Shown: positions 2,596-64,000, counted from the stretch's first letter. The stretch: DNA of 64,000 nt from an uncultured Gammaproteobacteria bacterium (GCA_964453605.1 CAYVOI010000001.1:102276-166275), one strand, 5' to 3'. The notes: generated from the letters alone by a model not told the origin. Program-made: numbers and translations.

Positions 2596-4483
2596 GCGTA
2601 CCGTACGTATGGCCATTACTGCCCGACAAGCTAGCGCTGAGCTGCAGCGTCCGGTGAGCACCCTGCCCCAGCCGGAAGAGCTTCCGCCCGCCAGCGAAAA
2701 AGAACTGCTGGAGGCCGAGCGCCTGCTCCGCGAAGGTTCGGTCAGGGTTCGTGATATCATCGCCCCCGCCAGCTTAAAGGTTACCCCCGATCACCTTGAG
2801 CTCAATGGGCTCTGGCTCCGGACGCTCTTCGTTATGACCTACCCCCGTTACATTTCGGTGGGCTGGTTTGCGCCCATTATCAACCTCAACGCCACCTTAG
2901 ACGTCAGTATGTTCTTCTACATGGTACCGTCGGAGATAATTTTGAAGCAGCTCAGGAACCGGGTGGGTGGCATTGAGGCGCAAATTGTAGCCGACCACGA
3001 AAAGGGTGCCCCCCGTGACCCTATTCGCGAAACCGCGCTTCGTGACATCGAGCAGCTCAGGGATTCGCTCACCCAGGGCACCGAGCGCTTTTTCCAGGTG
3101 GCCCTCTACGTCACGCTCTACGCTAAGGACAAGACCGAGCTCGACAAGCTGACGGAGGAGGTGGAGTCTATCTTCGGCTCCAAGCTGGTGTACTCCCGCC
3201 GGGCGCTCTGGCAAACTGAACAAGGGTTCAACTCCACGCTACCGCAAGCCACCGACGACCTGCAGATCTACTTCAACATGAACACCAGCCCGGCGGCTTC
3301 GAGCTTCCCCTTTATTTCCTCCGAGCTCACCTCGGACAGCGGCATTCTCTACGGCATCAACCGGCACAACAACTCACTCATTCTGTTTGACCGTTTTAGC
3401 TTGCAGAACGCCAACATGAGCGTGTTCGCCACGAGTGGCGCCGGTAAGAGCTACGCTGTGAAGCTCGAGGTGCTCAGGAGCCTCATGATGGGGACCGACG
3501 TTATCATCATCGACCCTGAAATGGAGTACAAGCACCTCAGTGAGGCGGTCGGAGGTGCTTACGTTAACATCTCGTTGAATTCAGAGTCTAAGATAAATCC
3601 GTTTGACCTGCCGCGACCAGTGGGTGACGTGAACACTGGTGACATTATCCGCTCGGCTGTGATAACCCTGAAAGGCCTGATGCGCTTAATGCTCGGGAGC
3701 TTAACCCACGTAGAGGATTCGCTTATCGACCGGGCACTCCTTGAAACCTACGCCAAGAAAGACATTACCCCGGCATCGGACCTCTCTAAAGTTGAAGCGC
3801 CGGTGATGGCCGACTTCCAGGAAGTGTTAGGTGGTATGCAGGGCGGTGAAGATTTGGCGCTCCGTTTGAAAAAGTACACCGAGGGTACGTTCGCTGGCCT
3901 CTTCAACAGCCCTACGAATGTTGACGTCAAAAACCAGTTGGTGGTGTTCTCAGTCAGGGACTTGGAAGATGAGCTCAGGCCCATCGCTATCTACACCATT
4001 GTGAACTACATTTGGAACGTGGTGCGGAGTGAGCTCAAGAAACGCTTACTCGTTATTGATGAGGCGTGGTGGCTGATGCAGAACGAGGACAGCGCTAAGT
4101 TCATTTTCGCGCTCGTGAAGCGCTGCCGTAAGTACTACCTCGGGGTGACCACCATTACGCAAGACGTTAACGACTTCTTAACCAGCCCTTATGGCCAGGC
4201 TATTGTGAACAACTCGGCGTTGCAGCTCTTGCTCAAGCAGTCACCCGCTGGCATAGACCTGGTGGTAAAAACGTTCCTCCTCACCGAGGGCGAAAAGTAC
4301 TTGCTCCTCGAGTGCGGCGTAGGTGAGGGCATTTTCTTTGCCGGCTCCAAGCACGCGGCTATTAAGGTGGTGGCCTCCTACACCGAGGACCAGCTCATAA
4401 CGAGCGACCCCCGGCAGCTCCTCGAAATTGAACAGGCCAAGAAAGAGTTTGAGGCCAGCCTCAAAGAACCGGACATTGGTTAA
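2585..4483 (+). CDS. virB4: VirB4/TrbE/CagE-family type IV secretion ATPase (core and C-terminal part)
   Basis: Walker A FATSGAGKSYAVK and Walker B LLVIDEAWWLM, where DEAW is the VirB4 hallmark. Also IIIDPEMEY and TITQDVNDF. With the upstream fragment the total is about 860 aa, typical for VirB4. Confidence 0.85.
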   Translation: MPAKRTVRMAITARQASAELQRPVSTLPQPEELPPASEKELLEAERLLREGSVRVRDIIAPASLKVTPDHLELNGLWLRTLFVMTYPRYISVGWFAPIINLNATLDVSMFFYMVPSEIILKQLRNRVGGIEAQIVADHEKGAPRDPIRETALRDIEQLRDSLTQGTERFFQVALYVTLYAKDKTELDKLTEEVESIFGSKLVYSRRALWQTEQGFNSTLPQATDDLQIYFNMNTSPAASSFPFISSELTSDSGILYGINRHNNSLILFDRFSLQNANMSVFATSGAGKSYAVKLEVLRSLMMGTDVIIIDPEMEYKHLSEAVGGAYVNISLNSESKINPFDLPRPVGDVNTGDIIRSAVITLKGLMRLMLGSLTHVEDSLIDRALLETYAKKDITPASDLSKVEAPVMADFQEVLGGMQGGEDLALRLKKYTEGTFAGLFNSPTNVDVKNQLVVFSVRDLEDELRPIAIYTIVNYIWNVVRSELKKRLLVIDEAWWLMQNEDSAKFIFALVKRCRKYYLGVTTITQDVNDFLTSPYGQAIVNNSALQLLLKQSPAGIDLVVKTFLLTEGEKYLLLECGVGEGIFFAGSKHAAIKVVASYTEDQLITSDPRQLLEIEQAKKEFEASLKEPDIG

Positions 4484-29375: not shown

Positions 29376-29511
29376 ATCTGTGTAGGGCTAGCAGAGCTAG
29401 CGGTTGTTAGTTATAGAATTCAGTAGTTAGGCTATCCTCGTGCAGTTGGTGGGCAAGCCCTGAAGTAGAACCCCGTTCACTTCAGGGTAAAGGCTCTAGT
29501 TTCTGTACATG

Positions 29512-49315: not shown

Positions 49316-49362
49316 CTCGAGAAGGGTTAGAATCTTTACCCCAAAGTGAGCTATGCTCTACT

Positions 49363-49917
49363 TTGGGGCCTTCCTCTCCGCCATCAGTCCTTATGCAAGG
49401 AAAATTAGAAGAGTACTCGTCAGAATGGTTGAAGAAATATGAGCTCGAGGCTAACAAGATACAAGCTAGTTTAGGTAGTGCTATAAAAGATATTCAGCAT
49501 ATTGGGAGTACATCTATTCCGGGCGCTATTGCTAAACCGTTAATAGACATTGGCGTGCTAGTTGATTCGATAGATGATATTGACCTGTTCGTAAATAAAC
49601 TAGAATCGCTCGGATATTCATATAAGCCAGACATGTCTTCGGTTGAGCGAATTTTCCTTCGAAAGGGTAAACCCGTTGAGTATCATTTATCCATCGCTTG
49701 TCCTAAGCATACATTTTGGAGGCGCCAAATTTCTTTTAGAGATTACCTAAGATTACGCCCGGAATTTGTTGAAGAATATAATAAGTTAAAGCTAAAAAAT
49801 TTTGATGCAACGTCGCCAGATGATTTTACAGATCTCTCAAAAAGTAAAACCTATAACCAAGGGAAGGGGGGATTCGTTGAGAAAATCTTAAAACTTGCCA
49901 AGGCAGATCGTATGTAA
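49363..49917 (+). CDS. GrpB-family (UPF0157, nucleotidyltransferase-like) protein in a low-GC islet
   Basis: IQHIGSTSIPGAIAKPLIDIGVLV matches the GrpB core (HIGSTS.PG..AKP.IDI). Lower GC than the flanks. Probable start at MQGKLEEY (about 49393). Confidence 0.65.
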   Translation: MGPSSPPSVLMQGKLEEYSSEWLKKYELEANKIQASLGSAIKDIQHIGSTSIPGAIAKPLIDIGVLVDSIDDIDLFVNKLESLGYSYKPDMSSVERIFLRKGKPVEYHLSIACPKHTFWRRQISFRDYLRLRPEFVEEYNKLKLKNFDATSPDDFTDLSKSKTYNQGKGGFVEKILKLAKADRM

Positions 49918-53407: not shown

Positions 53408-54307
53408 ATGTCGTACGAAAAAGAGCTTAAACTCGCACTCAGGCTCGCCCGACAGGCGAGCCGTTTGACTCTGAAATTCCGGGCTAAGAAATACCGTGTA
53501 CAGTATAAACAAGGTCATTCTCCAGTAACGGTAGCAGACCGCGCCGTAGAGTCTTTGTACGTACGGGGGATTAGGGCAGAGTTCCCCCATGACCGTATAC
53601 TTGGTGAAGAGCACGGTAATCAAAAAGGTAAACCCGGCCGATTTTGGAGTGTAGACCCTATAGACGGCACGGCCGAGTTTATTAGGCCGGGTGGTCATTT
53701 TTCAACGATGATCGCGCTTGTGGTGAGTGGTAAACCAGTACTAGGTGTGATAGCAGCCCCTACCTCTGGTAAGGTTTACTATGCCGTTCGAGGTGAAGGC
53801 GCGTACTTCATTTCGGGTTCTCGCCGCCGCAAGTTAAGCGTACGGCGTAGTGCCAAAAGTATTCACGTTGCTGTGTTCAATAGATCGGTGCATCAAGCTA
53901 CTCAGTCGGAGTACGTGGCTAAAATTCGTGCCCTGGTAGGGCCAAAGCGTACTGTGCCCATAAGTGGCGCTGGACTCATTTTGTGCGCTGTGGCTGAAGG
54001 AAAACTTGATGCAGGTTTAATACCCTACCTTAACATGGGTATTTGGGATGTACTCCCCGGCGAGGTTATTGTTTCTGAAGCCGGAGGTGTTGTGAGAAAT
54101 TGTTTGGGTGGTGTATATAAGCCCCGCTGGGGAGCCTCAGCTGTTCGCTTGGGTGTGGTAGTGGCAAACAAGGTGCTCCTAACAAAAATAGTATCTGAGC
54201 TCCGGCGAGGGGGAGTAGTAAAGCTGCTGCATCAAGAGGCTGAACGCCGCCGTAGGACCATCGAGCTAACTGACAAACACCTTGCCAGGCGTGTCAGGAT
54301 AGTTTAG
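53408..54307 (+). CDS. inositol monophosphatase/CysQ-family phosphatase
   Basis: Metal-binding blocks ILGEEHG and WSVDPIDGTAEFI, and the C-terminal WD motif GIWDV. Confidence 0.7.
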   Translation: MSYEKELKLALRLARQASRLTLKFRAKKYRVQYKQGHSPVTVADRAVESLYVRGIRAEFPHDRILGEEHGNQKGKPGRFWSVDPIDGTAEFIRPGGHFSTMIALVVSGKPVLGVIAAPTSGKVYYAVRGEGAYFISGSRRRKLSVRRSAKSIHVAVFNRSVHQATQSEYVAKIRALVGPKRTVPISGAGLILCAVAEGKLDAGLIPYLNMGIWDVLPGEVIVSEAGGVVRNCLGGVYKPRWGASAVRLGVVVANKVLLTKIVSELRRGGVVKLLHQEAERRRRTIELTDKHLARRVRIV

Positions 54308-54343
54308 GATACGAGAGCGTTCCTAGGGGAACGTCCTTTGATA

Positions 54344-54359
54344 ATCCGGGGTAGTCCGC
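54344..54359. terminator. palindromic GC hairpin after the phosphatase gene
   Basis: GTCCGCCGCGGCGGAC is a perfect palindrome. The downstream T-richness is weak. Confidence 0.4.
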
Positions 54360-54381
54360 CGCGGCGGACAGTGGACTGTTT

Positions 54382-54627
54382 ATGTATTTTGTTTACGTTT
54401 TACGAAGTAAATTTGGTAAACTTTATATTGGCCACACGAATAATTTAGAGCGCCGGGTGGCCGAGCATAACCTAGGATTCTCGCGGTATACTTCGAGAGT
54501 CGCAGGCCCGTGGGCATTGGTCTATAAGGAGCCATTTAATACCAGAAGTGGGGCTATGAAACGTGAACGTGAGTTGAAAACTGGTAAGGGTAGAGATTAC
54601 TTGAAAAATTTTTTACACATATGTTAA
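54382..54627 (+). CDS. GIY-YIG nuclease-family small protein
   Basis: MYFVYVLRSKFGKLYIGHTNNLERRVAEHN matches the GIY-x10-YIG...R...H core. 81 aa. Confidence 0.65.
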   Translation: MYFVYVLRSKFGKLYIGHTNNLERRVAEHNLGFSRYTSRVAGPWALVYKEPFNTRSGAMKRERELKTGKGRDYLKNFLHIC

Positions 54628-54639
54628 CCCCAGCACTGC

Positions 54640-54711
54640 TCCGGGGTAGCTCAGTGGTAGAGCAATCGGCTGTTAACCGATTGGCCGTGGGTTCGAATCC
54701 CACCCCCGGAG
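54640..54711 (+). tRNA. tRNA-Asn (anticodon GTT)
   Basis: TCCGGGG-TA-GCTC-AGTGGTA-GAGC-A-ATCGG-CTGTTAA-CCGAT-TGGCC-GTGGG-TTCGAAT-CCCAC-CCCCGGA-G. U1-A72 and G73 as in enterobacterial tRNA-Asn. The flanks extend the acceptor stem into a perfect 19-bp inverted repeat. Confidence 0.85.
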
Positions 54712-54757
54712 CAGTGCTGGGGTTGTTGACCTCAGGGTAGAGTCCGCCATAGGCGGA

Positions 54758-56395
54758 TTAATCCATTGGTCGTGGGTTCGAATCCCACCCCCGGAGCCAT
54801 CGTGTACGAACCGCGTTGAGAGACGCGGTTTGTGCTTTATTTATCGGCGTTTTCGCCGGTTCTAACCTCTTGTACTCAAACTCGAGCTTAGGATAGCGTT
54901 TTTCGATTGGTGCTAGCAGTTCATTGGCTGTAATCGCGAATTTTCCATCCTTTAGCGTTGGGTTCGAACCTAATAGCAGCAGTATCTCGCGCTTCTTACG
55001 CAGGTCATCGCCCTCAAACTCGCGCTTCGCACTGGCTGCGAAGTTGAAGGTTTGCTCGCACACGCTGAGCCACTTGTCCGCTCGGTCTTCAGTGGAATTA
55101 GCTAATGCCTTGAACTTTTCAATCTCGGTATTCAGGCGATCTCGCTCTTTTAGGTACTCTTCGTCCGAGAGCAGGCCCTTGCAGCGCAGGCGCACCAGCT
55201 CGTCGCGCTGCTGATAGGCCGAGGCCAGGGCTTTCTGCTGCGAGTCGTAGATTTTCTTGCGTTCTTCCGTTTCCTGGCCGTGGTTTTTATGTATGGCCTC
55301 AATAGCCCAATCCCCGAACTCCGGCAGAATGGTGTATTTTGCCAACTCGTCCGCGATTTGCTCCTCTAGTTTATCTTGCGTAATACACTGGTGTTGTGAG
55401 CAGGGTGGTTCGATTTTCCTCCAGGTGCAGTGGTAGTAGGTGTAGGATTTGAGCTGGCCGGTGGCCTTGATGTGTTTTGTCTTGGTTTCGGCCGTAATCA
55501 AGCAGCCGCACTCACCGCAGCGGATAATGCCGGTAAAAGGGAACTCATGCCGGTGCGGCCGGGCTTGTGACGGTCGTCCGAGGATGCGCTGGGCTTCATA
55601 GAACTCACCTTCAGTCACCATAGGCTTGTGTTTGCCTGGGTACCGCTTGCCGTTGACCTCCAGCACGCCCATATAGAAACTGTTACTGAAGATGCGGTAT
55701 AGTCCGCTCAGCGACAGCGGCCGGTTGCCGACCTTATGCCGCTGTTGCGTCCTGAACCCCCACTGGTTGTTTGCCATGCCGAGTATCTGTTTAGGCGAGT
55801 GCGCGCCCGTTAGTAACAAGTCCCACATCTTACGTACCAATGGAAACCGCTCTGGGTCGATGTCGATAGTCTTCTGGCCCTTCTGTTGGTCGGTGCGGTT
55901 CAGGTACCCTATGTTGGCCACGCCGGGCTTCCAGCCCATGGATAGCTTTTTATCAAGCCCTCGCTTCACGTCCTTGCTGAGTTTGGCCGAGGAGTACTGC
56001 GACTGCGACAGCGCCAGCTGCAGCATCATGATGCCCTCAGGCGAGTTATCAAAATGGTACGAGGCGAACTTGAGATCCTTGAGGTGGCCCGTGCGCAGCA
56101 TGTAGGTGATAGTGGCTGCCTCTATCTCATTACGAGACAATCGATCCGGGTGCCACGCTACGATGCCTTGTGCCTCGCCTTTGTTGATCCGTTCAATCAT
56201 AGCGGCGAACACCGGCCGGTTGTGGGGCGTAAAGGCACTGCGGCTTTCCTCCAGCACGTCTACTATCTCTAGGTTGCCGAACAGCTTTTCGGCCTGGTCT
56301 TTTTGCGACTCGATTGATAACACCTGCCGTTCCGCCTCCTCAGAGGACTTACGGGCGTACAGGAAGTATTTAACCATTGGTTCGCTCATACTCAT
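54758..56395 (-). CDS. large serine recombinase (resolvase/invertase N-terminal domain, recombinase domain, zinc ribbon, coiled coil)
   Basis: Catalytic YARKSSEEAERQVLSIESQ, WHPDRLSRN, and zinc ribbon CGECGC...YYHC. The C-terminal 14 codons read through the tRNA-fragment repeat (…GWDSNPRP). Confidence 0.8.
   Translation of the reverse strand: MSMSEPMVKYFLYARKSSEEAERQVLSIESQKDQAEKLFGNLEIVDVLEESRSAFTPHNRPVFAAMIERINKGEAQGIVAWHPDRLSRNEIEAATITYMLRTGHLKDLKFASYHFDNSPEGIMMLQLALSQSQYSSAKLSKDVKRGLDKKLSMGWKPGVANIGYLNRTDQQKGQKTIDIDPERFPLVRKMWDLLLTGAHSPKQILGMANNQWGFRTQQRHKVGNRPLSLSGLYRIFSNSFYMGVLEVNGKRYPGKHKPMVTEGEFYEAQRILGRPSQARPHRHEFPFTGIIRCGECGCLITAETKTKHIKATGQLKSYTYYHCTWRKIEPPCSQHQCITQDKLEEQIADELAKYTILPEFGDWAIEAIHKNHGQETEERKKIYDSQQKALASAYQQRDELVRLRCKGLLSDEEYLKERDRLNTEIEKFKALANSTEDRADKWLSVCEQTFNFAASAKREFEGDDLRKKREILLLLGSNPTLKDGKFAITANELLAPIEKRYPKLEFEYKRLEPAKTPINKAQTASLNAVRTRWLRGWDSNPRPMD
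54766..54799 (+). repeat. duplicated 3' fragment of tRNA-Asn (variable region through CCA); no 5' acceptor strand; candidate att remnant
   Basis: TGGTCGTGGGTTCGAATCCCACCCCCGGAGCCA compared with the tRNA's TGGCCGTGGGTTCGAATCCCACCCCCGGAGCAG. The upstream sequence cannot form D or anticodon arms. Confidence 0.5.
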
Positions 56396-56553
56396 GTCGG
56401 TTAATAATCAAAAGGGACGGCTCTGTGGTTGACCCAACGCACATCCCAGAGGAATGCTCTGTTGGCACAGAGACCGCCCCTTTCGAGGCAACAGAGCGCA
56501 AAAAACTCTGGGACATAGTTATGCGGAGGGTCAACATGGGTATTATAGTATGG

Positions 56554-56790
56554 TTAGACTAAGTTGACGAGCCGACCGGCTGCGACCCTGTGTTTATCTC
56601 GTATCGGTAGGATTATCACTCCGAGCCCACTGAGTGCTATGTCTGCCCCTAGGGTCTCAAGGCTCGGGTAGCTCTTCGTGCCTGCCAAGTAGAGCCCACT
56701 AGTTTTGTCGAACAGGACGACGCCAACGTCAGCGTCATTGCTGCCAACGAGGCCTTCGAGCTTTTTCAGCTTTAGCTTAGTAACTGACAT
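56554..56790 (-). CDS. hypothetical small protein
   Basis: 78 aa, same strand as the neighbours. No motif. Confidence 0.3.
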   Translation of the reverse strand: MSVTKLKLKKLEGLVGSNDADVGVVLFDKTSGLYLAGTKSYPSLETLGADIALSGLGVIILPIRDKHRVAAGRLVNLV

Positions 56791-56793
56791 ATG

Positions 56794-57162
56794 TTATTGC
56801 CTGAGTTTAAGAATCTTCTGCTCCAGGGCGTCGAAACGCTCCTCGAGCTCTGACAGCTCCAACGCTTTCAGGAGGTGTCCAGACAGGAATCCAATGGAGT
56901 TTGCCACCCTGAGGTCGAGGCTGCCCATCCGCACGCGGTTTACCGTATCCTCCAGCAGTTGTACCACGTCGCCGGACTTGTTGGCCGTGATAGGTGGCAG
57001 CGGCTCCTTCACCCTGGCACGGTTAGCTTGGCCGCCCTTAACATGAGCCGCATGTTTCATTTCCACCGATACGGCTGGGTTGTGGTAGAAGCAGTAGTCA
57101 CTCCCCGTCATGGGACTGGCACCACACGGCTCACCATCGTCTTTTAGCTGTTTACACGTCAT
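56794..57162 (-). CDS. hypothetical protein with N-terminal Cys4-like zinc-ribbon
   Basis: CKQLKDDGEPCGASPMTGSDYCFYHNP. Confidence 0.35.
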   Translation of the reverse strand: MTCKQLKDDGEPCGASPMTGSDYCFYHNPAVSVEMKHAAHVKGGQANRARVKEPLPPITANKSGDVVQLLEDTVNRVRMGSLDLRVANSIGFLSGHLLKALELSELEERFDALEQKILKLRQ

Positions 57163-57171
57163 AGTGTTGAC

Positions 57172-58524
57172 CTAGTTAGCTTGGGGTACACCCACTTTAC
57201 CTTTGTACCCCCAAAAAGGCAGTCCGTTAGCTGAATCGGCGGTTTGCCCAGCTTCGTTTGACTCAGTTGGAGTTGCTACCCCACCCTCGCCACCACTATT
57301 GTTTTCTGGCGTAGATATAGTGGTTGGCACAGTGGGGTAAATGAGCCTTTTGCGCTTGTCGGTGGGGTCGTCTTCCTGGGTGATAAGCCCGGCCGTCTCC
57401 AGCATGGGTATGATTTGCTGTCTGAGCTGCTGGCTGTCGAGCATCCGGCCGTACACCCCGTGGTGCTTCTCCAGCACCTCCTGGCGGGTGAGGCCCTGGT
57501 TTTCCACCCCGGGAGCCTGCTTCGCTTCCCAGGCCACGAGGATGACTTCGCGGTACAGCTGGTACACGTAGGGCGGCAGGTTGAGTTCCTGGCTTTCTGA
57601 AATGCTGTCCCAGATGCGAAAGCCGTCAGCCACGTCTTGCTCGCTGGCCGTAATGGTGAACTCCGAGCGTTCCCGCCACCACAGGTTCAGGAGGGCCAAA
57701 GCCTTGATAATCGAGATGAGCCGGCTAATGTCGCGCTGGTGCCTAGGTTTTAGCATCCTGGCTTGCCCCATGAACCGCTCGGCTATAACTTCAGGCAACT
57801 TCAGCTTGATTTCCTCTATGCCAGCGTCCCTGATGGCTTGTATGCGCTCCTGTAGCAGCTTACGGGCCGGGTCAGCCGCGAGCCAGGCTAGGTAGGCGTC
57901 GCGGTCGGCCTCTTTGCGCACCTTTTCGCTGATGCCCTGCCTGAGCTTGTCCTGGTTCACCTCTGGGCTTAAGAGCAGGAACCGGGTGGCCTCCTGTTCG
58001 TCGATTTTGAGCCCGGCGGTGCAGAATATCACGGCCGGGTACCCCTTCAGGACCACGTTCTTGGTCCTTAGGCCGTACTTTTGGTTCTTGTCCGTGATTT
58101 TGAGGCGCACCTCCTTCTTGTCGTGCGACAGGAGCGGTCGCAGACGCTCCAGCAGTTGGGTGTGGGGCTGGTCAAGGAAAATGAGCACCTTGCGCGACAG
58201 GTCAACCACGTACCCACCTAGTTCTTTGTTGTACTCCCCCGTGTCGTGGAAAAAAGCCGTGGGTGAACAGTACCCTATCTCCTTAACGTCCTCAGCTGGG
58301 AACAGCCGGGCGACCTCGGTTGGGATGTACGATTTACCTGTTGAGGAAGGGGCGTTATAGCTGATGTTGAACTGGGCATTATCGGTATACGCCGACAGCT
58401 CGCACAGGAACGTTACCACCTTGTTCTGCTCATCCTGCTTAATGGTGAGGCCGAGGATTTGAGCCAGCTCTTCAACGCTCAAGGGCTGGAACTGGTTAGT
58501 CTGTTCGTCGGTTGTCATACTCAT
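57172..58524 (-). CDS. P-loop NTPase, putative replication initiator/helicase-like protein of the element
   Basis: Walker A YNAPSSTGKSY. Walker B-like VLIFLDQP. C-terminal winged-helix-like region. Architecture similar to plasmid/phage replication NTPases. Family not resolved. Confidence 0.4.
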   Translation of the reverse strand: MSMTTDEQTNQFQPLSVEELAQILGLTIKQDEQNKVVTFLCELSAYTDNAQFNISYNAPSSTGKSYIPTEVARLFPAEDVKEIGYCSPTAFFHDTGEYNKELGGYVVDLSRKVLIFLDQPHTQLLERLRPLLSHDKKEVRLKITDKNQKYGLRTKNVVLKGYPAVIFCTAGLKIDEQEATRFLLLSPEVNQDKLRQGISEKVRKEADRDAYLAWLAADPARKLLQERIQAIRDAGIEEIKLKLPEVIAERFMGQARMLKPRHQRDISRLISIIKALALLNLWWRERSEFTITASEQDVADGFRIWDSISESQELNLPPYVYQLYREVILVAWEAKQAPGVENQGLTRQEVLEKHHGVYGRMLDSQQLRQQIIPMLETAGLITQEDDPTDKRKRLIYPTVPTTISTPENNSGGEGGVATPTESNEAGQTADSANGLPFWGYKGKVGVPQAN

Positions 58525-58705
58525 TTTGGTTAATGGTTTTGAACTTAAGGTGGTGTTCGAACTCCTTCTGCAGCAGCCTGAAGCGGTTCTGCGCCTCGGC
58601 CAACTGCCACCTCAGGTCGCTGATGTGGTCGAGCACGGCGTTGATGTCATCGGCTATTTGGCTAGCTTTACGCATGAGGTTGGGGTGATAATGGTAATTG
58701 GGCAA
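58496..58705 (-). CDS. small hypothetical protein
   Basis: 69 aa, overlaps neighbours by a few codons. Confidence 0.3.
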   Translation of the reverse strand: MPNYHYHPNLMRKASQIADDINAVLDHISDLRWQLAEAQNRFRLLQKEFEHHLKFKTINQNEYDNRRTD

Positions 58706-58856
58706 GGTCGGCTTCGGTAATAGGCTGGTATATGAGCTGCATCAAACGAACCAGCTTAGTGCCCTGCTCCAACGCCTGTTCACGGCTAATCTCACGGCCG
58801 AAGCGGGCGTGGTATAACTTTTGAAAAGCGGCGATTTGTTCGTCCGATAGGTGCAT
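58668..58856 (-). CDS. small hypothetical protein (possible regulator)
   Basis: 62 aa and helical. Preceded by a bidirectional hairpin. Confidence 0.3.
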   Translation of the reverse strand: MHLSDEQIAAFQKLYHARFGREISREQALEQGTKLVRLMQLIYQPITEADLAQLPLSPQPHA

Positions 58857-59482
58857 AAAAAAATCCCCTCTGATGAAGGGGGTTTATTTACTGACGACAA
58901 CAGAAAACAACCCCACTTGGGCTATTCTCCGTTTGCGACCTCGGAAGGGCTAAGCTCGGCCCTCAGAAAGCAGACAACAGTTCACGTGCTGCCTTAATGC
59001 GACAAGATGTAGTGCCGGTCATTTCCCTCCGATGCCCACTGAGTGAACCAGTGACCATACCCACGGTATGGTATCCGCGCTAAAGAAGCGTGAACGTACC
59101 GGATAAGGCACTACTACCGCGTACGCGACAGGCCAGGTATGTAAGGGCCCGGCTCGCCGTACTGCATTATAGGGTTAATAAAGGAACTCTAGTGGTTGGA
59201 TTCGTTTACTAAACTTAGTCATACCACAGTTTCCGAAAGTACCCAAGGTAACCTTTATCCACACCTACCAAGATACCTATCAAGAAATAAATTGAGCTTG
59301 AATTTTGCTGTAACTTCTGGTAAAATTTTACATGCAAGTATACAAGTATAATAGCCTAAACCTAGGTAGCCCTAGGCATGGCTCAAAAACTCATGGTAGA
59401 TACTGAACCTCACGTTCAGCAGCTCTACCATGAGTCATGTCCCGAAAGGGGTATGGGCCGCAAGGCCAGCTGACGTGGGGTT

Positions 59483-59731
59483 TTGTGTACCCCACACCTA
59501 AGCCTTAATTACCTCCCTATGAGTCTCAAAACCTGGATTGGGCAGCTCTACAGTACACCACTGAACCTACTACTGGCCGTGGCTGCGCTGCTCGTCATTC
59601 TTTACTACGGCACTCATCTCTATGACTGGTTCCGACCGCAGACATACCAGGAGAAGTACATGCACTGTCTGGAACTTGGTAGTGATGCGCGGGCTGGAGC
59701 ATGCGTGAAGCTCCTTAAGGGTCAAAACTAA
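59483..59731 (+). CDS. small membrane protein, hypothetical
   Basis: 82 aa, one TM helix. Confidence 0.35.
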   Translation: MCTPHLSLNYLPMSLKTWIGQLYSTPLNLLLAVAALLVILYYGTHLYDWFRPQTYQEKYMHCLELGSDARAGACVKLLKGQN

Positions 59732-59743
59732 GTCTCAACCACT

Positions 59744-60433
59744 ATGCTTAAGAAGATTCTTCAGTTTTTGGGCGGCGCTGGTGTGGCAATAGGCATGATT
59801 TTGCTCCTGGCCATCCCTTTTTTCCTGGCGGGTTGGTACGAAAATCACTTTGACAGCTTCTACCCTTGGTTCGTTGCCATCCCTGGCATAGGCATTTGGG
59901 TGGTCATTTTCAGCATAGTGGCATCACTCGTCCCTCGGTTCAGAAAGTTCACGGGTTCGACTCTAGTGTTCTGTTCATGGGCATTTGGTGCCGCACTCTG
60001 GCTTGTTAATCTGTATGTATCACTAGTCACCCTCGGTCGAGTGTGGACGATAGTTGGTATCTTCTGTATGGGTATTGGTGTGTTTGTTACTGCTAGCATT
60101 GGTCTATTCCTAAGCGATAGGTCAACCGATGTCTGGCTCATGCTCTTCTACCTGGCTATTATTTACGGCCTGCGGATGTTTGGGTTGTTCATTGCTAGTA
60201 AGTACCGCTCCACAAAAAAATCAACTCGACCTCCACAGACTATGGGCCTTAATGTAAGAGAATCCGAGCACGTTGCGGACAGAAAGTTGATTGCCCTCAT
60301 CTCAACGAAAGGCAAAACCGCTGAGAAAGTATCAGCTGATACAATGGGAGCTATACAAAAATACTATGATACTATCTCTAGTCCACAAAAATCCTCGTCC
60401 AGCCCACGAAAAGGTACTGAAGACCAAAACTAG
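59744..60433 (+). CDS. polytopic membrane protein, hypothetical
   Basis: Five TM helices and a Ser/Lys-rich C-terminal tail. Confidence 0.45.
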   Translation: MLKKILQFLGGAGVAIGMILLLAIPFFLAGWYENHFDSFYPWFVAIPGIGIWVVIFSIVASLVPRFRKFTGSTLVFCSWAFGAALWLVNLYVSLVTLGRVWTIVGIFCMGIGVFVTASIGLFLSDRSTDVWLMLFYLAIIYGLRMFGLFIASKYRSTKKSTRPPQTMGLNVRESEHVADRKLIALISTKGKTAEKVSADTMGAIQKYYDTISSPQKSSSSPRKGTEDQN

Positions 60434-61128
60434 CCTCTCGGGCTATTTTGGGGTATACTTATCCACAGTCTCTCAAATACCCCCTCTCAGCTACATGCCT
60501 AAGGGTTGACAAAAAACCATAATCCACCTAAGGTACCGTAGCCATTGGGCATTTTGGATTTACTTCATAAAGAAAAGCTCCGTCGCTTTTCTGAGACAAC
60601 GAAGCTTTTCTCGTGAAAACTAGAGGTCGTCTTTACAGGCGACTTCTTTGTTTTTCCTGCGCTCCCAGTAATCTGGGATAGCTGGAAAACAGAAGGCCCG
60701 TTTGCCAACCTCTCGGGCATACAACCTCCGTCCGTTACGGAGCGTAATGTATGGCCGACAAACAATGTTTGTCATTGTTTTTGCGGTTAACCCATTTAGC
60801 TAGCTACATCGACCATCACTAGCTAGGGCTTCAGGGTAATTTAGCTCCTAGGGGAAGTTAATATGTAAACCTCTCCCCAATAGCCAAATGAAAAACCTGC
60901 ACCGAGTTCTGGCGTAGTGCGAGTTCCCTTTTCAGGGAATACGCACGAGGCGTATTGGTACTTTTGGTAACACTACGCCAGGACTCAACACAGGTTTTGC
61001 CTGTGGGAACTCTTTAGAACTTAACGGGGTACCAGCCCGTGCTTTGGAAAGAACTACTATAATAATAGCACGGGCTTAGAAGCCATGCAAATAGGATTGC
61101 TTAGCTTCAAATTACTTTTAGGGCTATA

Positions 61129-61743
61129 GTGATGTATATGCTCAAGAGTGGCACAAAGCGCAGCTGGGGCGTAGCTGAGGCAATGCCCTATATATACATA
61201 TTTGGTGGGGCCGTGGCTCTAGTTTTTTCGTTCCTCATTACTAACGAAAAAATCGAGCTACTCAAAAACCCTGACTACGTTCCACCCTGCAACATCAACC
61301 CCTTCATCAGCTGTGGCACGGTCATGGCTACGCCTCAAGCTTCTGTATTCGGGTTTCCTAATTCACTCCTTGGTATTGCCGGCTTTGCTGCGCTCATCAC
61401 CATTGGTGTGGTGCTGCTAACAGGCACCAAGCTGCCTCGCTGGTTTTGGCTGTGGTTGCAGGCAGGCACAACGCTCGCTGCGGCCTTTGTGTACTGGCTC
61501 TTTTTTGAAAGCGTCTATCGCATTGGAGCACTGTGCCCCTACTGCATGGTAGTGTGGGCTATGACATTACCAATTTTCTGGTACACCGCGGTGTACAACT
61601 TGCGTGAAGGACACCTAACAGGCACGAATTTGAACCTTAACCCGGGCCAGCACGTACTGGGCATGGTGGCGCTCTACGGTATTATTATTGTCGCCATACT
61701 TGTACACTATTGGAGCTACTGGGAACGGTTCCTCCACCAGTAA
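61129..61743 (+). CDS. vitamin K epoxide reductase (VKOR)-family disulfide-generating membrane protein
   Basis: Loop cysteine pair CNINPFISC and in-membrane CPYC active site (IGALCPYCMVVWAM). Four or five TM helices. Confidence 0.7.
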   Translation: MMYMLKSGTKRSWGVAEAMPYIYIFGGAVALVFSFLITNEKIELLKNPDYVPPCNINPFISCGTVMATPQASVFGFPNSLLGIAGFAALITIGVVLLTGTKLPRWFWLWLQAGTTLAAAFVYWLFFESVYRIGALCPYCMVVWAMTLPIFWYTAVYNLREGHLTGTNLNLNPGQHVLGMVALYGIIIVAILVHYWSYWERFLHQ

Positions 61744-61760
61744 ATATGATATCAAGCACT

Positions 61761-62291
61761 ATGTCCCTACGACGTACCAGCTACGTAGCTACCTTCCTCA
61801 GCCTGCTGCTAGTAAGCTGGTCGCCGGCCTTGGCCCATGGCGGCGTATCAAAAAACATCGGCCACGCTGTGGTGTACCTCAACCAAGAACCCCTGTCGCC
61901 CCTGGTGGGCGAGCGAGTAAAGTTCTCTTTTGCTCTGCAAGACACCAAGGGTGCAGCACTCGTGAACCTACCCGTGCAGCTTACGCTCACCGATACCTAC
62001 TATGGGGATGAAAGCAAGGATAAGGTTATACTCACCCAGCCGGTAATCAGCGACGTAAATGGTGATTTCGAATTTGCCTACACGTTCACTAAACAAAACT
62101 ACTTTGACCTGGATTTAGACTTCGCCGACCCTATCACGAAGGCAACCCTCAACACGGGCTTCTTGGTGCAACCCAGAACGGCGCCACCGGGTGCGCCCGC
62201 CACGGCACCACTACCTCTGGTGGCAGGGGCTATTGTGCTCGGAGTACTTTTGACACTCGGTGTAAAAACTTTAGTCAAACGTCTCTTCTAG
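61761..62291 (+). CDS. signal-peptide protein with beta-sandwich-like domain and C-terminal TM anchor
   Basis: Signal peptide MSLRRTSYVATFLSLLLVSWSPALAHG. C-terminal anchor LPLVAGAIVLGVLLTLGV. The start was moved from the track's 61710. Confidence 0.45.
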   Translation: MSLRRTSYVATFLSLLLVSWSPALAHGGVSKNIGHAVVYLNQEPLSPLVGERVKFSFALQDTKGAALVNLPVQLTLTDTYYGDESKDKVILTQPVISDVNGDFEFAYTFTKQNYFDLDLDFADPITKATLNTGFLVQPRTAPPGAPATAPLPLVAGAIVLGVLLTLGVKTLVKRLF

Positions 62292-62398
62292 GTATATTCG
62301 GTCTGAGTTTAGCACTAAATCGTAACAGGTAAGAGACGATTGAATACCCTACATTAGCGTGGTACCATTAGCTTTATCGTTAGCTCATTTTTGATATC

Positions 62399-63643
62399 AT
62401 GAAACAAGCTTTTATTAAGTTTTGTTTAGGAGTTGGAATCGTAGCGTGCTTGGTGCTGGTGCTCGCACCCGTGGCGAGTGCTGTCAGTAGCATTAAGGCA
62501 GCGCCAAATCAAAACAATGTACCGACCGATTTTGGTAACGCTGGCAATTTCAACCCCGATTTCACTTCGCCCCAGGGCGACCAGCAGCCAGCCATAGTTC
62601 CTGATCAGTACTATCGTGCTGTAGTAGAGAAGATACTTGAGGAAGGCACGTTTAACCTTGGTGGCGCTTACAAGCAACCGTACCAAAAGGTACGTGTGAA
62701 ACTACTCACGGGGCCTCAGGCCGGTCAGGAGGTAGATATCGACTACGGAAAGGATTCCGAGATCAGGGAGTCGCAAAAAGTTAAAGTTGGCGATACCATC
62801 GTCGTGCTCCAAAGCCACGCCCTGGAGGGGGCGACGCAGTACTTCATAGCAGATCGATACCGACTACCGGCGGTTCTAGTCATGGTGGCCATTTTTTTGC
62901 TTGTAACCGTGTTTTTCGGCAGGCTCAAAGGACTTACCTCTATTCTTGGTTTGGCACTGAGCATTGGGGTACTCATATGGTTCGTCATACCGAGGATAGT
63001 CGCGGGAGCTAACCCCTTATGGACCTGTGTGCTGGGAGCAATCATGATCGTGCTGGTATCTCTGTACCTAGCCCACGGCTTCAACAAGCGGACGTCGATA
63101 GCCTTACTTAGCACTCTGTTGACCCTTGGAGTTTCGGTTGGGCTAGCCAGCTTGGCAGTTCAGTTTGCTAAGCTCTCAGGTATGGGTAGTGAAGACGCGT
63201 TTTACCTACAAACGGATTTTCTCCATGGTCTTGATCTGCGCGGGCTTTTACTAGGGGGCATCATAATTGGCGCACTTGGCGTGTTGGATGACGTTACTAC
63301 CGGCCAAGCTGCGGCCGTAGACGAAATCCATAACGCTGACCCCAAGCTGCCATTCACGGAGCTGTATAAGCGGGGCTTATCTGTCGGCAAAGAGCACATC
63401 GCATCTCTGGTAAACACCCTAGCCCTCGCTTATGTTGGCGCCTCGTTCCCGCTCCTGCTCTTGTTCGCGACTAATCATGATCAACCACTCTGGTTCGTGG
63501 TAAACGGTGAGTTAGTGATGGAGGAGGTGGTGCGAACCTTAGTTGGCAGCATGGCGCTACTTATAGCGGTACCGCTCACTACACTACTTACGGCTCGTTT
63601 CTTGGTACCTAGAGCGGAACGGCGTAAACGGGTTTTACCGTAA
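62399..63643 (+). CDS. YibE/F-family membrane protein
   Basis: N-terminal extracytoplasmic domain plus a seven-or-so TM bundle. GIIIGALGVLDDVTTGQAAAVDEI block is typical of YibE/F. Confidence 0.5.
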   Translation: MKQAFIKFCLGVGIVACLVLVLAPVASAVSSIKAAPNQNNVPTDFGNAGNFNPDFTSPQGDQQPAIVPDQYYRAVVEKILEEGTFNLGGAYKQPYQKVRVKLLTGPQAGQEVDIDYGKDSEIRESQKVKVGDTIVVLQSHALEGATQYFIADRYRLPAVLVMVAIFLLVTVFFGRLKGLTSILGLALSIGVLIWFVIPRIVAGANPLWTCVLGAIMIVLVSLYLAHGFNKRTSIALLSTLLTLGVSVGLASLAVQFAKLSGMGSEDAFYLQTDFLHGLDLRGLLLGGIIIGALGVLDDVTTGQAAAVDEIHNADPKLPFTELYKRGLSVGKEHIASLVNTLALAYVGASFPLLLLFATNHDQPLWFVVNGELVMEEVVRTLVGSMALLIAVPLTTLLTARFLVPRAERRKRVLP

Positions 63644-63855
63644 AGCTAGTTCTTTAGCCAAACCGAGGGTTCTAATCTCCTCCACCACCCGGAGCCATGA
63701 TAAAAACCATCAGCCTAAAAGGTTGGTGGTTTTTATCATAACGCCCTATGGCGTGGCGGGATTCGAAGGGTAGTTCAAAAACGTAAACTGCTTTACGTTT
63801 TTGAACACCCGGGCTGTGAAGGAGGAGCGCGAGTCTTCGAGCGCGACAGGTGAGC

Positions 63856-63876
63856 AGGAATCCCACCCCCGCAGTT
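63856..63876 (+). repeat. direct repeat of the tRNA-Asn 3' T-arm/acceptor segment (candidate attR core)
   Basis: GAATCCCACCCCCGCAG compared with GAATCCCACCCCCGGAGCAG in tRNA-Asn. Nearby are an inverted GGGATTCGAA fragment (about 63757) and a 15-bp stem hairpin (63773-63805). Confidence 0.3.
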
Positions 63877-64000
63877 CCCACAATTAAAACTCTCCTTGCG
63901 GGCGTTTTTGATTTGAAGTAGCATAGGAATATGAAAACCTCTTATAAGTTCGCACTCGTAGCGATTCCGCTTGCCGTCGCAGCGTTTTTGTTAGGTCGTA

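Follow-up and report, generated by a model that had tools for sequence, protein, structure and literature searches.

What does a perfect inverted repeat around a tRNA-Asn gene mean when the next features downstream are a partial second copy of that tRNA and the gene of a large serine recombinase (LSR)? The question arose from a 64,000-nt window (the whole stretch of DNA analysed; GCA_964453605.1 CAYVOI010000001.1:102276-166275), for which the earlier note had suggested an att site built on a tRNA, with the repeat as recombinase substrate and the partial copy as a duplication made by integration. We consider it likely that two unrelated selfish elements share one tRNA-Asn gene in the genome of an ultra-small CPR/Patescibacteria bacterium: an 8,898-bp serine-integrase element and a small GIY-YIG cassette. 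On comparative sequence analysis, the structure of the site, the boundaries of the element, the empty sites and the family-wide pattern are established.

The region left of and into the recombinase gene carries the following features.

54345 to 54354, plus strand: orphan 5′ piece of the original host tRNA-Asn (positions 1-10, TCCGGGGTAG), equal to positions 1-10 of the intact tRNA-Asn in L161-L171
54355 to 54368, plus strand: GC palindrome hp1, TCCGCCGCGGCGGA, 13 nt ahead of the GIY-YIG start codon
54369 to 54380, plus strand: original tRNA-Asn positions 25-36, CAGTGGACTGTT, comprising the anticodon-stem 5′ strand and the loop to GTT; an exact 12-nt match to L161-L171
54382 to 54627, plus strand: GIY-YIG nuclease ORF, 81 aa, catalytic domain only (Pfam PF01541, E = 4.7e-16)
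54626 to 54646, plus strand: left arm of the inverted repeat, 21 bp, perfect; 14 flanking bp plus the acceptor 5′ strand
54640 to 54712, plus strand: replacement tRNA-Asn(GTT), cassette-borne, no encoded CCA (ARAGORN and Rfam, 76.7 bits)
54704 to 54724, plus strand: right arm of the inverted repeat, overlapping with its distal 9 nt the acceptor 5′ strand, degenerate here, of the pseudo-tRNA that follows
54716 to 54757, plus strand: degenerate 5′ part of the pseudo-tRNA, with GCTGGGGTTG (like positions 1-10), CTCAGGGTAGAG (D-arm, 12/13) and hp2
54743 to 54757, plus strand: palindrome hp2, TCCGCCATAGGCGGA, replacing the anticodon-stem 5′ strand
54758 to 54799, plus strand: 3′ part of the original host tRNA-Asn, reaching from TTAA of the anticodon loop to CCA and forming the B arm of attL

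It is the integrase-proximal copy, not the repeat-flanked tRNA, that matches the canonical host tRNA-Asn: positions 54758-54799 agree at all 42 nt with the 3′ part of intact tRNA-Asn genes from 11 metagenome loci. The orphan 5′ piece starts 37 nt past the inositol-monophosphatase gene, the same place as the tRNA in the empty site L158, and ARAGORN called a tRNA-Asn(gtt) from the joined stretches 54345-54378 and 54758-54800. Remnants of the old gene lie at 54345-54354, 54369-54380, 54731-54742 and 54758-54799, and the pieces run in the order 1-10, hp1, 25-36, then 11-23, hp2, 35-76. The replacement tRNA differs from this split original in the anticodon stem (ATCGG/CCGAT versus GTGGA/TCCAT) and in the variable loop. 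Over 40 nt (54758-54797) the 3′ copy is 93% identical to it, and CA follows, giving CCA at 54797-54799; a 25-mer is exactly common to both, with 0 expected by chance. The partial copy and its encoded CCA had thus been recognized correctly, its length (34 nt) and its position (16 bp downstream) had not: it starts 45 nt after the tRNA, and far from having no 5′ half it is preceded by degenerate 5′ pieces at 54716-54742. Two Logan assemblies break exactly at 54758, which suggests that the 30-mer starting there has a second context in those samples.

We propose that the small GIY-YIG cassette disrupted the original tRNA-Asn, cutting its 3′ part from the 5′ part (54345-54380), and brought along a replacement tRNA-Asn of different sequence. 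The partial copy is therefore the severed 3′ part of the host gene and not a duplication made by integration, and the replacement tRNA at 54640-54712 is probably the functional copy. GIY-YIG cassettes adjoining tRNAs, with an orphan 5′ piece and a GC hairpin, were also found at L002, L008, L031, L034 and L051, and in seven of nine cases across loci a homologous small GIY-YIG ORF precedes a tRNA on the same strand by 6-52 nt. L031 carries the same palindrome at the same 13-nt spacing before both of its tandem GIY-YIG ORFs, and its cassette unit begins with the same design as the degenerate 5′ part of the pseudo-tRNA. Within the window the palindrome pattern occurs twice (0.01 expected); with two copies there and unrelated matches in L054 and L007, a genome-wide REP-like repeat was rejected. 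The inverted repeat and the partial copy track the GIY-YIG cassette, not the recombinase.

The cassette resembles free-standing or intron-borne GIY-YIG homing endonuclease genes in that a small ORF sits in a conserved essential gene whose target is duplicated or replaced while function is kept. It differs from them in that the 81-aa ORF consists of the catalytic domain alone, lacking a separate DNA-binding domain and a self-splicing intron, and in that the cassette appears to ride the tRNA transcript and leaves orphan tRNA pieces and a GC palindrome; homing is putative here. The ORF matched a group I intron endonuclease subfamily weakly, below the cut-off, and no group I intron was detected in 54000-64000 at E ≤ 1. 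A split tRNA hosting a group I intron was rejected on the grounds of no intron match, no terminal G and too little non-coding sequence.

The tRNA-Asn does lie in a perfect inverted repeat, although of 21 bp rather than the 19 bp (12 of them flanking) first described: 14 flanking bp extend the 7-bp acceptor stem, and the discriminator G of the tRNA pairs with the base immediately upstream of the gene. Among 133 tRNAs from the window and all fetched loci, a flank extension of more than 5 bp was seen only in this tRNA-Asn and in the same tRNA of L157, a Logan contig of the same genome as the window. As RNA, the repeat-flanked tRNA folds into a cloverleaf on a 21-bp stem (-67 kcal/mol, z = -8.8). 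The arms of the repeat stand 57 nt apart, and the LSR crossover core is found in the other tRNA copy, 85 nt downstream. A search of the window for further copies of the inverted repeat yielded none beyond chance, and on this count the arms were rejected as terminal repeats of a mobile mini-element. The repeat belongs to the replacement tRNA copy and is not a recombinase site.

We infer that the repeat most probably arose as a side effect of repair, by fold-back or template switching, that was primed on the acceptor stem, itself self-complementary; selection could equally keep the 21-bp stem perfect. A functional stem is a possible but less probable explanation, namely a processing helix (for example, an RNase III substrate), maintained by selection, that frees the replacement tRNA from a polycistronic transcript running through the orphan tRNA piece, the GIY-YIG mRNA, the tRNA, the pseudo-tRNA and a terminator. 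Co-transcription of cassette and tRNA is plausible because the sole terminator-like site on the plus strand (54804-54835) follows the pseudo-tRNA. The perfect pairing next to degenerate tRNA remnants, the highly stable fold (z = -8.8) and a replacement tRNA with neither an encoded CCA nor a terminator of its own all fit such a helix. Yet the repeat is known from one genome only and is absent at the other GIY-YIG-associated tRNAs (L002, L008, L031, L034 and L051), a test for selection has zero covarying homologs to draw on, and pairing of leader with trailer should hinder RNase P and RNase Z. Repair by fold-back or template switching is therefore the reading that we favor over a processing stem.

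The recombinase and its attachment sites are laid out as follows.

54758 to 56395, minus strand: LSR, 545 aa in the integrated form, with Resolvase, Recombinase and Zn_ribbon_recom domains
54790 to 54800, plus strand: attL core CCCGGAGCCAT, predicted to hold the crossover dinucleotide
54804 to 54845, plus strand: element-borne terminator-like hairpin and T-run for the tRNA, inside the integrase ORF (other strand)
63668 to 63687, plus strand: attR P arm GGTTCTAATCTCCTCCACCA; the excised form would encode the integrase tail (W)LRVVEEIRT
63688 to 63698, plus strand: attR core CCCGGAGCCAT
63697 to 63810, plus strand: host flank of the original tRNA-Asn, with a terminator-like hairpin, GGGATTCGAAGGGTA (63758-63772), a conserved hairpin

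The domain content bears out the identification of the enzyme as a large serine recombinase: the resolvase domain (PF00239, E = 6.9e-18) has the Ser nucleophile and the Arg residues, and it is accompanied by a C-terminal Recombinase domain (PF07508) and a four-Cys zinc ribbon (PF13408), with a further match to the PHROG 95 integrase (E = 2.7e-66). Y13, R15, S17, Q24, R85, R88, C293, C296, C323, C332 and W533 are invariant in a 35-sequence alignment of homologs, and the codon of W533, TGG, is the reverse complement of CCA.

The two cores bound an element of 8,898 bp. Spanning the acceptor 3′ strand, the discriminator and CCA, the 11-bp core is the sole sequence common to both ends; CGGAGCC occurs in 54700-63950 only there and at 63690. 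Relative to the tRNA T-loop GTTCGAAT, the GTTCTAAY of the element-side arms is shifted 5 bp away from the core: the distance from GTTC to A76 is 29 nt in the attR P arm versus 24 nt in the tRNA (the reference measured in the tRNAs of the window and L001). The 29-nt distance recurs wherever attR has CCA (the window, L001, L023 and the distal site of L071), and in L037 with an element-side A added. LSR half-sites abut a central dinucleotide, and the ZD motif lies 5 bp closer to the center in attB than in attP (Rutherford et al. 2013, PMC3783163); the offset found here matches that shift. The att sites are short, and the 5-bp offset is seen in the left half-sites only, the right half-sites (P′ and B′) having weak symmetry. 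The crossover probably lies within the 11-bp core, where estimates from dyad symmetry and from LI-integrase numbering fall ~3-4 bp apart. The predicted attP is GGTTCTAATCTCCTCCACCACCCGGAGCCATCGTGTACGAACCGCG (junction ...CCACCACCCGGAGCCATCGTGTACG...), and the predicted attB is ...GAATCCCACCCCCGGAGCCATGATAAAAACC. The host-side half-site would consist of the tRNA T-arm and acceptor, and the P arm would present the same GGTTC-AA motif 5 bp farther out. In the mechanism that we propose, the serine integrase inserted the element at the extreme 3′ end of tRNA-Asn by attP × attB integration, and the element supplies a new terminator for the tRNA; terminator hairpins equivalent to 54804-54845 in other loci have different stem sequences. 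Enzymes of the family recombine attP with attB through a crossover staggered by 2 bp and require a directionality factor for excision; catalysis by this integrase, and hence activity of the element, is likewise a prediction.

The empty sites agree with these boundaries. L158, L161 and L168 contain an intact tRNA-Asn followed directly by flank homologous to the window right of 63698, the search for unoccupied relatives thereby giving what the earlier note had anticipated for an integrated element. L158 was chosen as a distant syntenic site (dnaG-rpoD-IMPase-tRNA-Asn) and L161 and L168 by tRNA sequence; all come from distant relatives, the inositol-monophosphatase protein of L158 being 46% identical. 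A scan of the genome collection with the inositol-monophosphatase protein encoded upstream in the window found no relative, its homologs being at most 46% identical. None of the three recombinase-free sites has the inverted repeat or the partial copy, so the refuting condition set by the earlier note does not arise. With cores at both ends and empty sites in relatives, an att site built on tRNA-Asn and an integrated element are supported.

The same architecture is widespread among homologs. Of 80 homologous genome loci, 52 have a whole convergent tRNA gene that is overlapped by the LSR ORF; at least 71 of the 120 top homologs end in an antisense-tRNA tail, and the clade targets at least 14 different tRNA species; tails of the P type occur in homologs without a tRNA after the integrase gene. 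A BLAST search for a long direct tRNA repeat at the far end of the 52 loci returned almost nothing, as the identity block measures only ~10 bp and most elements are longer than the 10-kb flank. Anchoring the search on the motif instead revealed attR sites at L001, L023, L037, L051 and L071, 6-11.5 kb from attL and of one design: GTTCTAAY, a spacer of 12-13 nt and the final 7-9 nt of the target tRNA.

The C-terminus of the recombinase reads through the tRNA copy, as had been noticed earlier: its final 13 codons (WLRGWDSNPRPMD) are antisense to the copy, and the 12 residues after W533 in the integrated form (LRGWDSNPRPMD) are antisense host tRNA. Since attP and the 3′ end of the integrase gene overlap, excision would leave a gene for a 552-aa protein ending in WLRVVEEIRTLGLAKELALR, as reconstructed in silico, in place of the 545-aa protein ending in WLRGWDSNPRPMD. 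The element-side arm encodes its own tail and the tRNA arm another, so integration would swap the C-terminus of the integrase; at the protein level this exchange is a prediction. No alternative-tail integrase was found in the same protein cluster, whose second member differs only in the start codon. Tentatively, and with considerable doubt, we suggest that a CPR-wide clade of serine integrases reads the universal tRNA T-loop and acceptor as attB half-site and uses its own C-terminal coding sequence as attP half-site, so that integration and excision toggle two C-termini. These would be a conserved W-L-x-V-V-E/D-E/D-V/I-R-T tail and an antisense-tRNA tail, and with such a toggle the enzyme could have a directionality or expression switch built in. 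Farther inside the integrase gene, T-loop-like motifs ('LEP' at 54859, 'GSNP' at 54962) could be older captured antisense-tRNA segments.

Between the two cores the element contains the following.

56554 to 57162, minus strand: two small ORFs of 78 and 122 aa (p78, p122), candidate accessory or directionality factors; the 122-aa ORF is kept in L018 and L029
57172 to 58524, minus strand: p450, a P-loop protein corresponding to the helicase-like half of Toprim primase-helicase proteins
58668 to 58856, minus strand: p62, a small ORF of the element, conserved ahead of p450 in 10 related loci
59353 to 59467, plus strand: LOOT RNA (RF03000), 88.2 bits against a gathering score of 46.4; also in the related element at L010
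59744 to 63643, plus strand: cargo (Pfam), namely a 229-aa membrane protein, VKOR (61129-61743), a 193-aa protein and YibE/F (62399-63643)

No recognizable family matches were obtained for p78, p122 and p62, and p450 had zero matches in Pfam, PHROGs, NCBIfam and the PDB sequence search. More than 2,600 homologs of p450 (~68% identity) were found, many of them 720-745 aa long with an N-terminal Toprim; from these domain fusions, the sole basis for its function, p450 is probably the replication protein of the element, which would then be self-replicating. A text search for the LOOT motif produced nothing useful.

p62, p450 and the integrase are kept together in nine related loci, and p450 adjoins the integrase in 13. 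The cargo, which lies between attL and attR and has a GC content of 0.49 versus 0.55, is absent from 13 related p450-containing loci, bar one YibE/F match (L015). This raises the rather improbable alternative that the mobile element is only a conserved ~4-kb core (54801 to ~58890, integrase to p62), with VKOR, YibE/F and LOOT being host genes or the remnant of an older element and the attR at 63688 a leftover. Such a core would explain why p62, p450, p122 and the integrase alone recur, why the cargo GC is lower, and why L071 has two attR-like sites, from which it follows that tandem arrays occur. However, 54801-63687 contains no internal copy of the core or the P arm, LOOT is on the element side in L010 as well, and in the empty sites L158, L161 and L168 the flank directly adjoins tRNA-Asn, with neither VKOR nor YibE/F. 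The attR distances of 6-11.5 kb in other loci mean that 5-7 kb of additional DNA regularly accompanies a core of ~4 kb. We therefore retain the full 8,898-bp element; since its cargo half is unconserved and lower in GC, it may nevertheless be composite or of tandem origin, its internal junction having degraded.

The model in which the dyad around tRNA-Asn is itself the serine-recombinase site, the 34-nt copy an integration duplication and the element a segment from ~54712 to ~63876 is very improbable. Serine-recombinase sites do have dyad symmetry, the repeat is perfect and non-random, and 63858-63874 matches the tRNA 3′ part at 16 of 17 positions; but 57 nt separate the two arms, in contrast to LSR half-sites, which meet at the central dinucleotide, neither the repeat nor a tandem partial copy occurs at the 52 other LSR-occupied tRNA loci, and the canonical host tRNA is matched by the integrase-proximal copy, not by the tRNA inside the repeat. 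Sequence from 63697 on is host flank homologous to the empty sites, so that 63858-63874, 160 nt outside the element, was rejected as attR and the right end moves to the core at 63688-63698. An ordinary, partly decayed tandem duplication of a tRNA gene, unlinked to any mobile element, has as little to commend it: 2-3 tRNA-Asn-derived sequences do fall within 460 nt, but the pieces are interleaved with the GIY-YIG ORF and two palindrome copies that are cassette-specific and also present in L031, the complete copy and the fragments differ compensatorily in the anticodon stem, so the former is not a recent local duplicate, and empty sites have a single tRNA.

Phage large serine integrases (Listeria A118/LI, Bxb1 and phiC31) share with the present enzyme the Resolvase, Recombinase and Zn-ribbon/coiled-coil architecture (the coiled coil being putative here), short att sites, a brief attP/attB identity and a motif 5 bp nearer the center in attB. 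They differ in that here the last bases of a tRNA gene are the target, which is rare in the family, the integrase ORF contains attP in its 3′ end, and the proposed outer motif is the universal tRNA T-loop. A 2020 survey counted tRNA targets in 14 of 297 S-Int elements and called them not previously reported (PMC7192596). The islands and prophages that tyrosine integrases place in tRNA genes (Islander/Williams classes) likewise integrate at the tRNA 3′ end and restore it, have the integrase adjoining the tRNA, and form sub-clades specific for different tRNAs. Enzyme family and chemistry differ, and here the element supplies the tRNA terminator: no tyrosine recombinase stands beside the tRNA (no Pfam Phage_integrase domain in ten ORFs scanned, 53408-63643), and the restored 3′ end forms a direct repeat of 11 bp only. 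Because the identity block is only ~11 bp, the long direct repeat that marks the far end of such islands is missing.

Integrases of the Mx8 intP/intX and SSV1 types are tyrosine recombinases with attP in the integrase gene, so that integration changes the coding sequence; SSV1 splits its integrase gene, and in Mx8, where the target is likewise the 3′ end of a tRNA, a long stretch of the C-terminus is exchanged. In the present element, integration alters the coding sequence in silico by exchanging the last 19 residues for 12 antisense-tRNA residues. In gene content, the element is like the Prochlorococcus tycheposons, with a tRNA integrase, a replication gene (p450) and cargo between att sites. 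Tycheposons are described as small, cargo-carrying, self-replicating elements with primase/helicase genes and tRNA integration, mostly with tyrosine recombinases and with a large serine recombinase in 27 of 937 (bioRxiv 10.1101/2020.12.28.424599); they belong to another host phylum, and the text consulted describes no overlap of the integrase ORF with the tRNA. A literature search for integrase/tRNA overlap in CPR found no description.

Serine integrases, the main tools for the insertion of large DNA, were believed to spare tRNA genes. The present enzyme belongs to a large natural clade whose thousands of homologs (~3,300) are mostly from Patescibacteria and which, with one site design, seems to be directed at the final bases of many different tRNAs. 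The clade offers ready integrase/att pairs that point to conserved sites, a way to examine the 5-bp offset rule for attP and attB in natural systems, and possibly a state-dependent change of the enzyme's C-terminus. Small GIY-YIG cassettes carrying spare tRNA copies emerge as a second contender for tRNA genes in reduced genomes, and this bears on the annotation of tRNAs, pseudo-tRNAs and island borders in CPR genomes.

The minus-strand ORF at 54758–56395 encodes a 545-aa protein with Resolvase, Recombinase and Zn_ribbon_recom domains and a match to a phage integrase family. The reverse complement of a partial tRNA copy makes up its final 13 codons (WLRGWDSNPRPMD), confirming an earlier note on this DNA, which had the recombinase C-terminus reading through that copy. 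Homologs of the integrase number ~3,300, most of them from Patescibacteria/CPR. Alignment of 35 homologs showed the catalytic serine (S17), four zinc-ribbon cysteines and a tryptophan at position 533 to be invariant, and most of the aligned sequences ended in W-L-R-G-x-D-S-N-x-R-P. The reverse complement of CCA is TGG, encoding Trp, and that of the T-loop is GATTCGAAC, encoding D-S-N. Such an antisense-tRNA tail was present in at least 71 of the best 120 homologs. Among 80 loci from species-representative genomes, 52 had a complete opposite-strand tRNA gene overlapped by the recombinase ORF; the targets were tRNA-Asn (16 loci), tRNA-His (10), tRNA-Gln and tRNA-Trp (5 each), tRNA-Ser (3), tRNA-Asp, -Ile, -Tyr and -Leu (2 each), and tRNA-Phe, -Gly, -Glu, -Ala and -Lys (1 each). 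A terminator-like hairpin lies 3′ of each tRNA within the integrase ORF (54804–54835 in the window), its stem sequence varying by locus. Conservation of a tRNA in a fixed reading frame thus gives the conserved integrase "tail" as a by-product, and the overlap of integrase and tRNA is, judging from these comparisons, a family trait.

A further non-canonical case was found in the fetched locus L024 (11560–11810), where the integrase overlap is limited to a tRNA 3′ fragment: the integrase abuts the T-loop and acceptor fragment of a tRNA-Trp-like gene, ~85 nt from a complete tRNA-Gln.

BLAST searches for a long tRNA repeat on the far side of the tRNA-overlapping loci found none, and we therefore sought empty sites. 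In L158, a locus from a distant relative with the gene order dnaG–rpoD–inositol monophosphatase–tRNA-Asn, the tRNA-Asn is intact, ends in CCCCCGGAGCCA and is followed by a hairpin and then by aacgcc...GGGATTCGAAGGGT. The same flank lies in the window at 63697–63775, directly after TCCACCACCCGGAGCCAT at 63681–63698. Scanning metagenomes for the 3′ part of the "fragment-type" tRNA-Asn in intact form (48 nt) yielded 11 loci. In L161 and L168, rpoD and/or this downstream flank is present and a recombinase gene is absent; the one match in L161, of 41 aa, is to the antisense-tRNA tail. The closest empty sites are those of distant relatives. A related element occupies L163, with a 51% identical p450 (the 450-aa element protein) and a distant large serine recombinase overlapping the tRNA. 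The sole sequence common to attL, the element end at tRNA-Asn, and attR, the far end, is CCCGGAGCCAT (54790–54800 and 63688–63698), and CGGAGCC has no further occurrence between 54700 and 63950. By comparison of sequences, the evidence used throughout this analysis, the element is 8,898 bp long. The att site built on a tRNA that the earlier note had suggested is borne out by the core at the element end, which is the tRNA 3′ end, and by empty sites with an intact tRNA-Asn; its candidate right end at 63858–63874 lies in the host flank, the attR core being 63688–63698.

In the host lineage, tRNA-Asn is followed by a conserved stretch of non-coding sequence (63742–63810 in the window; L161, L168 and L158), consisting of GGGATTCGAAGGGTA and the hairpin caaaacgYaaactgctttRcgtttt. 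It matches the TD-2 RNA weakly and below threshold (34 bits, E = 0.04), and may represent a regulatory element or a small RNA, so far unannotated.

The attR core has GGTTCTAATCTCCTCCACCA on its left, and the distance from GTTC to the last A of CCA is 29 nt at attR versus 24 nt in the tRNA, counted from the T-loop GTTCGAAT. The same design, GTTCTAAY followed by 12–13 nt and the last 7–9 nt of the target tRNA, recurs in loci L001, L023, L037, L051 and L071 (twice in the last), at 6.3–11.5 kb from attL, so that 10-kb flanks usually missed attR. The spacing is 29 nt where attR has CCA (the window, L001, L023 and the distal L071 site) and in L037 once the element-side A is added; the 24 nt on the tRNA side was counted for the window and L001. 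In serine integrases, the zinc-ribbon-domain motif lies 5 bp farther out in attP than in attB (PMC3783163). Because the 5-bp outward shift matches this rule, we read the T-arm and acceptor as a putative B half-site; the corresponding P half-site would be the GGTTCTAAY arm. The crossover dinucleotide would fall somewhere within the 11-bp core; estimates from the dyad symmetry GGTTC...GAACC and from LI-integrase numbering differ by ~3–4 bp, and the right half-sites show weak symmetry.

In L071, a single tRNA-Asn attL has its two attR-like sites (GTTCTAAC...GCGGAGC, at ~3713 and ~122) at distances of 6.3 and 9.9 kb, which suggests tandem integrations at one tRNA. Separately, the strict T-loop-like motif GGTTC[GT]AA[CT]C occurs four times in 9.2 kb, against ~0.04 expected. 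Two copies are the att arms, and two lie in the integrase 3′ region (54859–54868 and 54962–54971), where they encode the conserved 'LEP' and 'GSNP'; 54947–54968 shares 77% identity with the T-arm region of the tRNA. The integrase-internal motifs could serve as accessory sites or derive from antisense tRNA captured long ago.

When attP was reconstituted in silico from the P arm and the element-side sequence, the integrase ORF became 552 aa long and ended in WLRVVEEIRTLGLAKELALR, as against 545 aa and WLRGWDSNPRPMD in the integrated form. The same pattern, W-x-x-x-V/L-x-E/D/G-V/I-R-T, is obtained on translating the P arms of L001, L023 and L037, and a P-type tail was found in ~16 of the best 120 homologs. 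Those inspected have no tRNA after the gene and lie on phage-like or small-element contigs, which fits elements that are not integrated. The tail may have been conserved for DNA recognition, and not for a function of the protein.

L175 (8996–10286) likewise encodes a serine integrase homolog ending in a P-type tail, and the contig additionally carries a tyrosine integrase and a reverse transcriptase/bAvd pair, the signature of a diversity-generating retroelement.

The partial copy (54758–54797) corresponds to the 3′ part of the tRNA from the anticodon-loop TTAA on, is 93% identical to tRNA-Asn over 40 nt and has its CCA end at 54797–54799. It starts 45 nt 3′ of the complete tRNA-Asn(GTT) at 54640–54712 (ARAGORN; Rfam tRNA, 76.7 bits). 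The earlier note had thus seen the copy and its CCA correctly and misjudged the spacing, and the 5′ half it took to be missing survives nearby in pieces, degenerate ones among them:

Pieces of the original tRNA-Asn and the palindromes lying between them
54345–54354: positions 1–10 (TCCGGGGTAG), at the tRNA start position in L158
54355–54368: palindrome TCCGCC-N2-3-GGCGGA, first copy
54369–54380: positions 25–36 (CAGTGGACTGTT), exact match to the canonical tRNA
54731–54742: D-arm piece CTCAGGGTAGAG, 12/13 match to the canonical tRNA
54743–54757: palindrome TCCGCC-N2-3-GGCGGA, second copy

The integrase ORF overlaps the whole tRNA in canonical loci and only positions 35–76 in the window. Joined, the split halves are called as tRNA-Asn by ARAGORN. 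Among the pieces sit an 81-aa GIY-YIG ORF and the repeat-flanked tRNA-Asn, whose anticodon stem and variable loop differ from those of the split gene by compensatory changes. The palindrome pattern occurs twice in the whole window; in the tandem GIY-YIG unit embedded in tRNA-Lys of L031, it lies 13 nt 5′ of the start codon in both copies. Across all loci, small GIY-YIG ORFs stand 6–52 nt upstream of a same-strand tRNA in seven of nine cases, and an orphan 5′ tRNA piece with a GC hairpin precedes the ORF in all five loci read (L002, L008, L031, L034 and L051). With split-gene pieces and cassette parts side by side, the sequence identifies the partial copy as the 3′ end of the old host tRNA-Asn, and the repeat-flanked tRNA-Asn as the replacement copy of the GIY-YIG cassette. 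As the old 3′ end retains a whole B half-site, excision of the element should still be possible in this split-tRNA context. The pseudo-tRNA at 54716–54799 looks like an L031-type unit whose ORF was lost by deletion between short direct repeats.

The L031 target is tRNA-Lys(CTT), which holds two tandem GIY-YIG units; in L001, a GIY-YIG ORF is inserted at an attR site, beside a duplicated tRNA 3′ end. Independent Logan assemblies of two sister samples (SRR12313480 and SRR12313479; contigs L156, L157 and L160) end exactly at 54758, and the SRR12313480 contigs ending there overlap by 30 nt (k−1). A second left context is therefore likely in those samples for the 30-mer TTAATCCATTGGTCGTGGGTTCGAATCCCA (54758–54787), e.g., an uninterrupted tRNA allele or the tRNA-Asn of another organism.

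The inverted repeat around tRNA-Asn is perfect over 21 bp (arms 54626–54646 and 54704–54724) and comprises the 7-bp acceptor stem and 14 flanking bp; the earlier note had found the perfect dyad and counted 2 bp too few in the flank. The window and all fetched loci together gave 133 called tRNAs; flanks extend the acceptor stem by 0–5 bp in all of them except this tRNA-Asn, in the window and again in L157 (a Logan contig of the same genome). The downstream pseudo-tRNA has a degenerate acceptor 5′ strand, and the right arm of the repeat overlaps it. The repeat is probably a local scar, and we infer as its simplest origin fold-back or template-switch synthesis, which, primed on the self-complementary acceptor stem, would make one flank the reverse complement of the other. 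A serious, if rather unlikely, alternative is a processing stem within a polycistronic transcript: the predicted transcript folds into a normal cloverleaf atop the 21-bp stem (−67 kcal/mol, z = −8.8), and 54804–54835 is the sole terminator-like site on the tRNA-Asn strand. The dyad as a recombinase substrate, proposed earlier, is rejected, as its arms are 57 nt apart, the core lies elsewhere and no other occupied locus has the repeat.

Elsewhere in the window, similar motifs, ctttaccc(c/t)(a/g)aagtga ... ctactt(c/t)(a/g)ggg(c), stand downstream of tRNA-Leu (minus strand, 29430–29510) and tRNA-Ser (49317–49400); a repeated hairpin or trailer element is one possibility.

The integrase is preceded upstream, on its own strand, by ORFs of 78, 122, 450 (p450) and 62 aa (p62). 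p450 adjoins the integrase in 13 genome loci regardless of target tRNA, with p62 upstream of it in nine of these. It carries a Walker-A motif, APSSTGKS, and its homologs at ~68% identity number more than 2,600, many of them 720–745 aa long with N-terminal Toprim primase domains and one with a Prim-Pol domain. The adjoining position and the primase-fused homologs point to a self-replicating integrative element. The remainder (LOOT RNA, membrane protein, VKOR, 193-aa protein and YibE/F) has lower GC and was not conserved at other loci, save one YibE/F match in L015; we treat it as cargo, a composite origin of the element being a minority alternative.

The LOOT RNA (RF03000) lies at 59353–59467 (plus strand) in the window and at 3025–3142 (minus strand) in L010, scoring 88 and 102 bits (gathering score, 46.4). 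It lies inside the integrative element on the strand opposite the integrase, and two of the eight related elements that were checked contain it. An association of this RNA with such elements is possible. The start regions of integrase and p450 are near-identical on the minus strand (ATTAACC(G/A)A(C/A)ATGAGTATGA, 56386–56405 and 58515–58534) and both proteins start MSM; the shared start region suggests that the two genes have a signal for translation initiation or regulation in common.

The tyrosine integrases of Mx8 and SSV1 have attP inside the integrase gene. Our literature search found no description of an integrase ORF/tRNA overlap, a T-loop half-site or the CPR clade. A 2020 survey called the use of tRNA genes by serine integrases unreported, with a figure of 14 of 297 elements (PMC7192596), and a minority of Prochlorococcus tycheposons have large serine recombinases (bioRxiv 10.1101/2020.12.28.424599). 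By domain and site comparisons, the window enzyme is a large serine integrase. Although its integrase is not of the tyrosine type that defines tRNA-targeting islands, the element would work like such an island.
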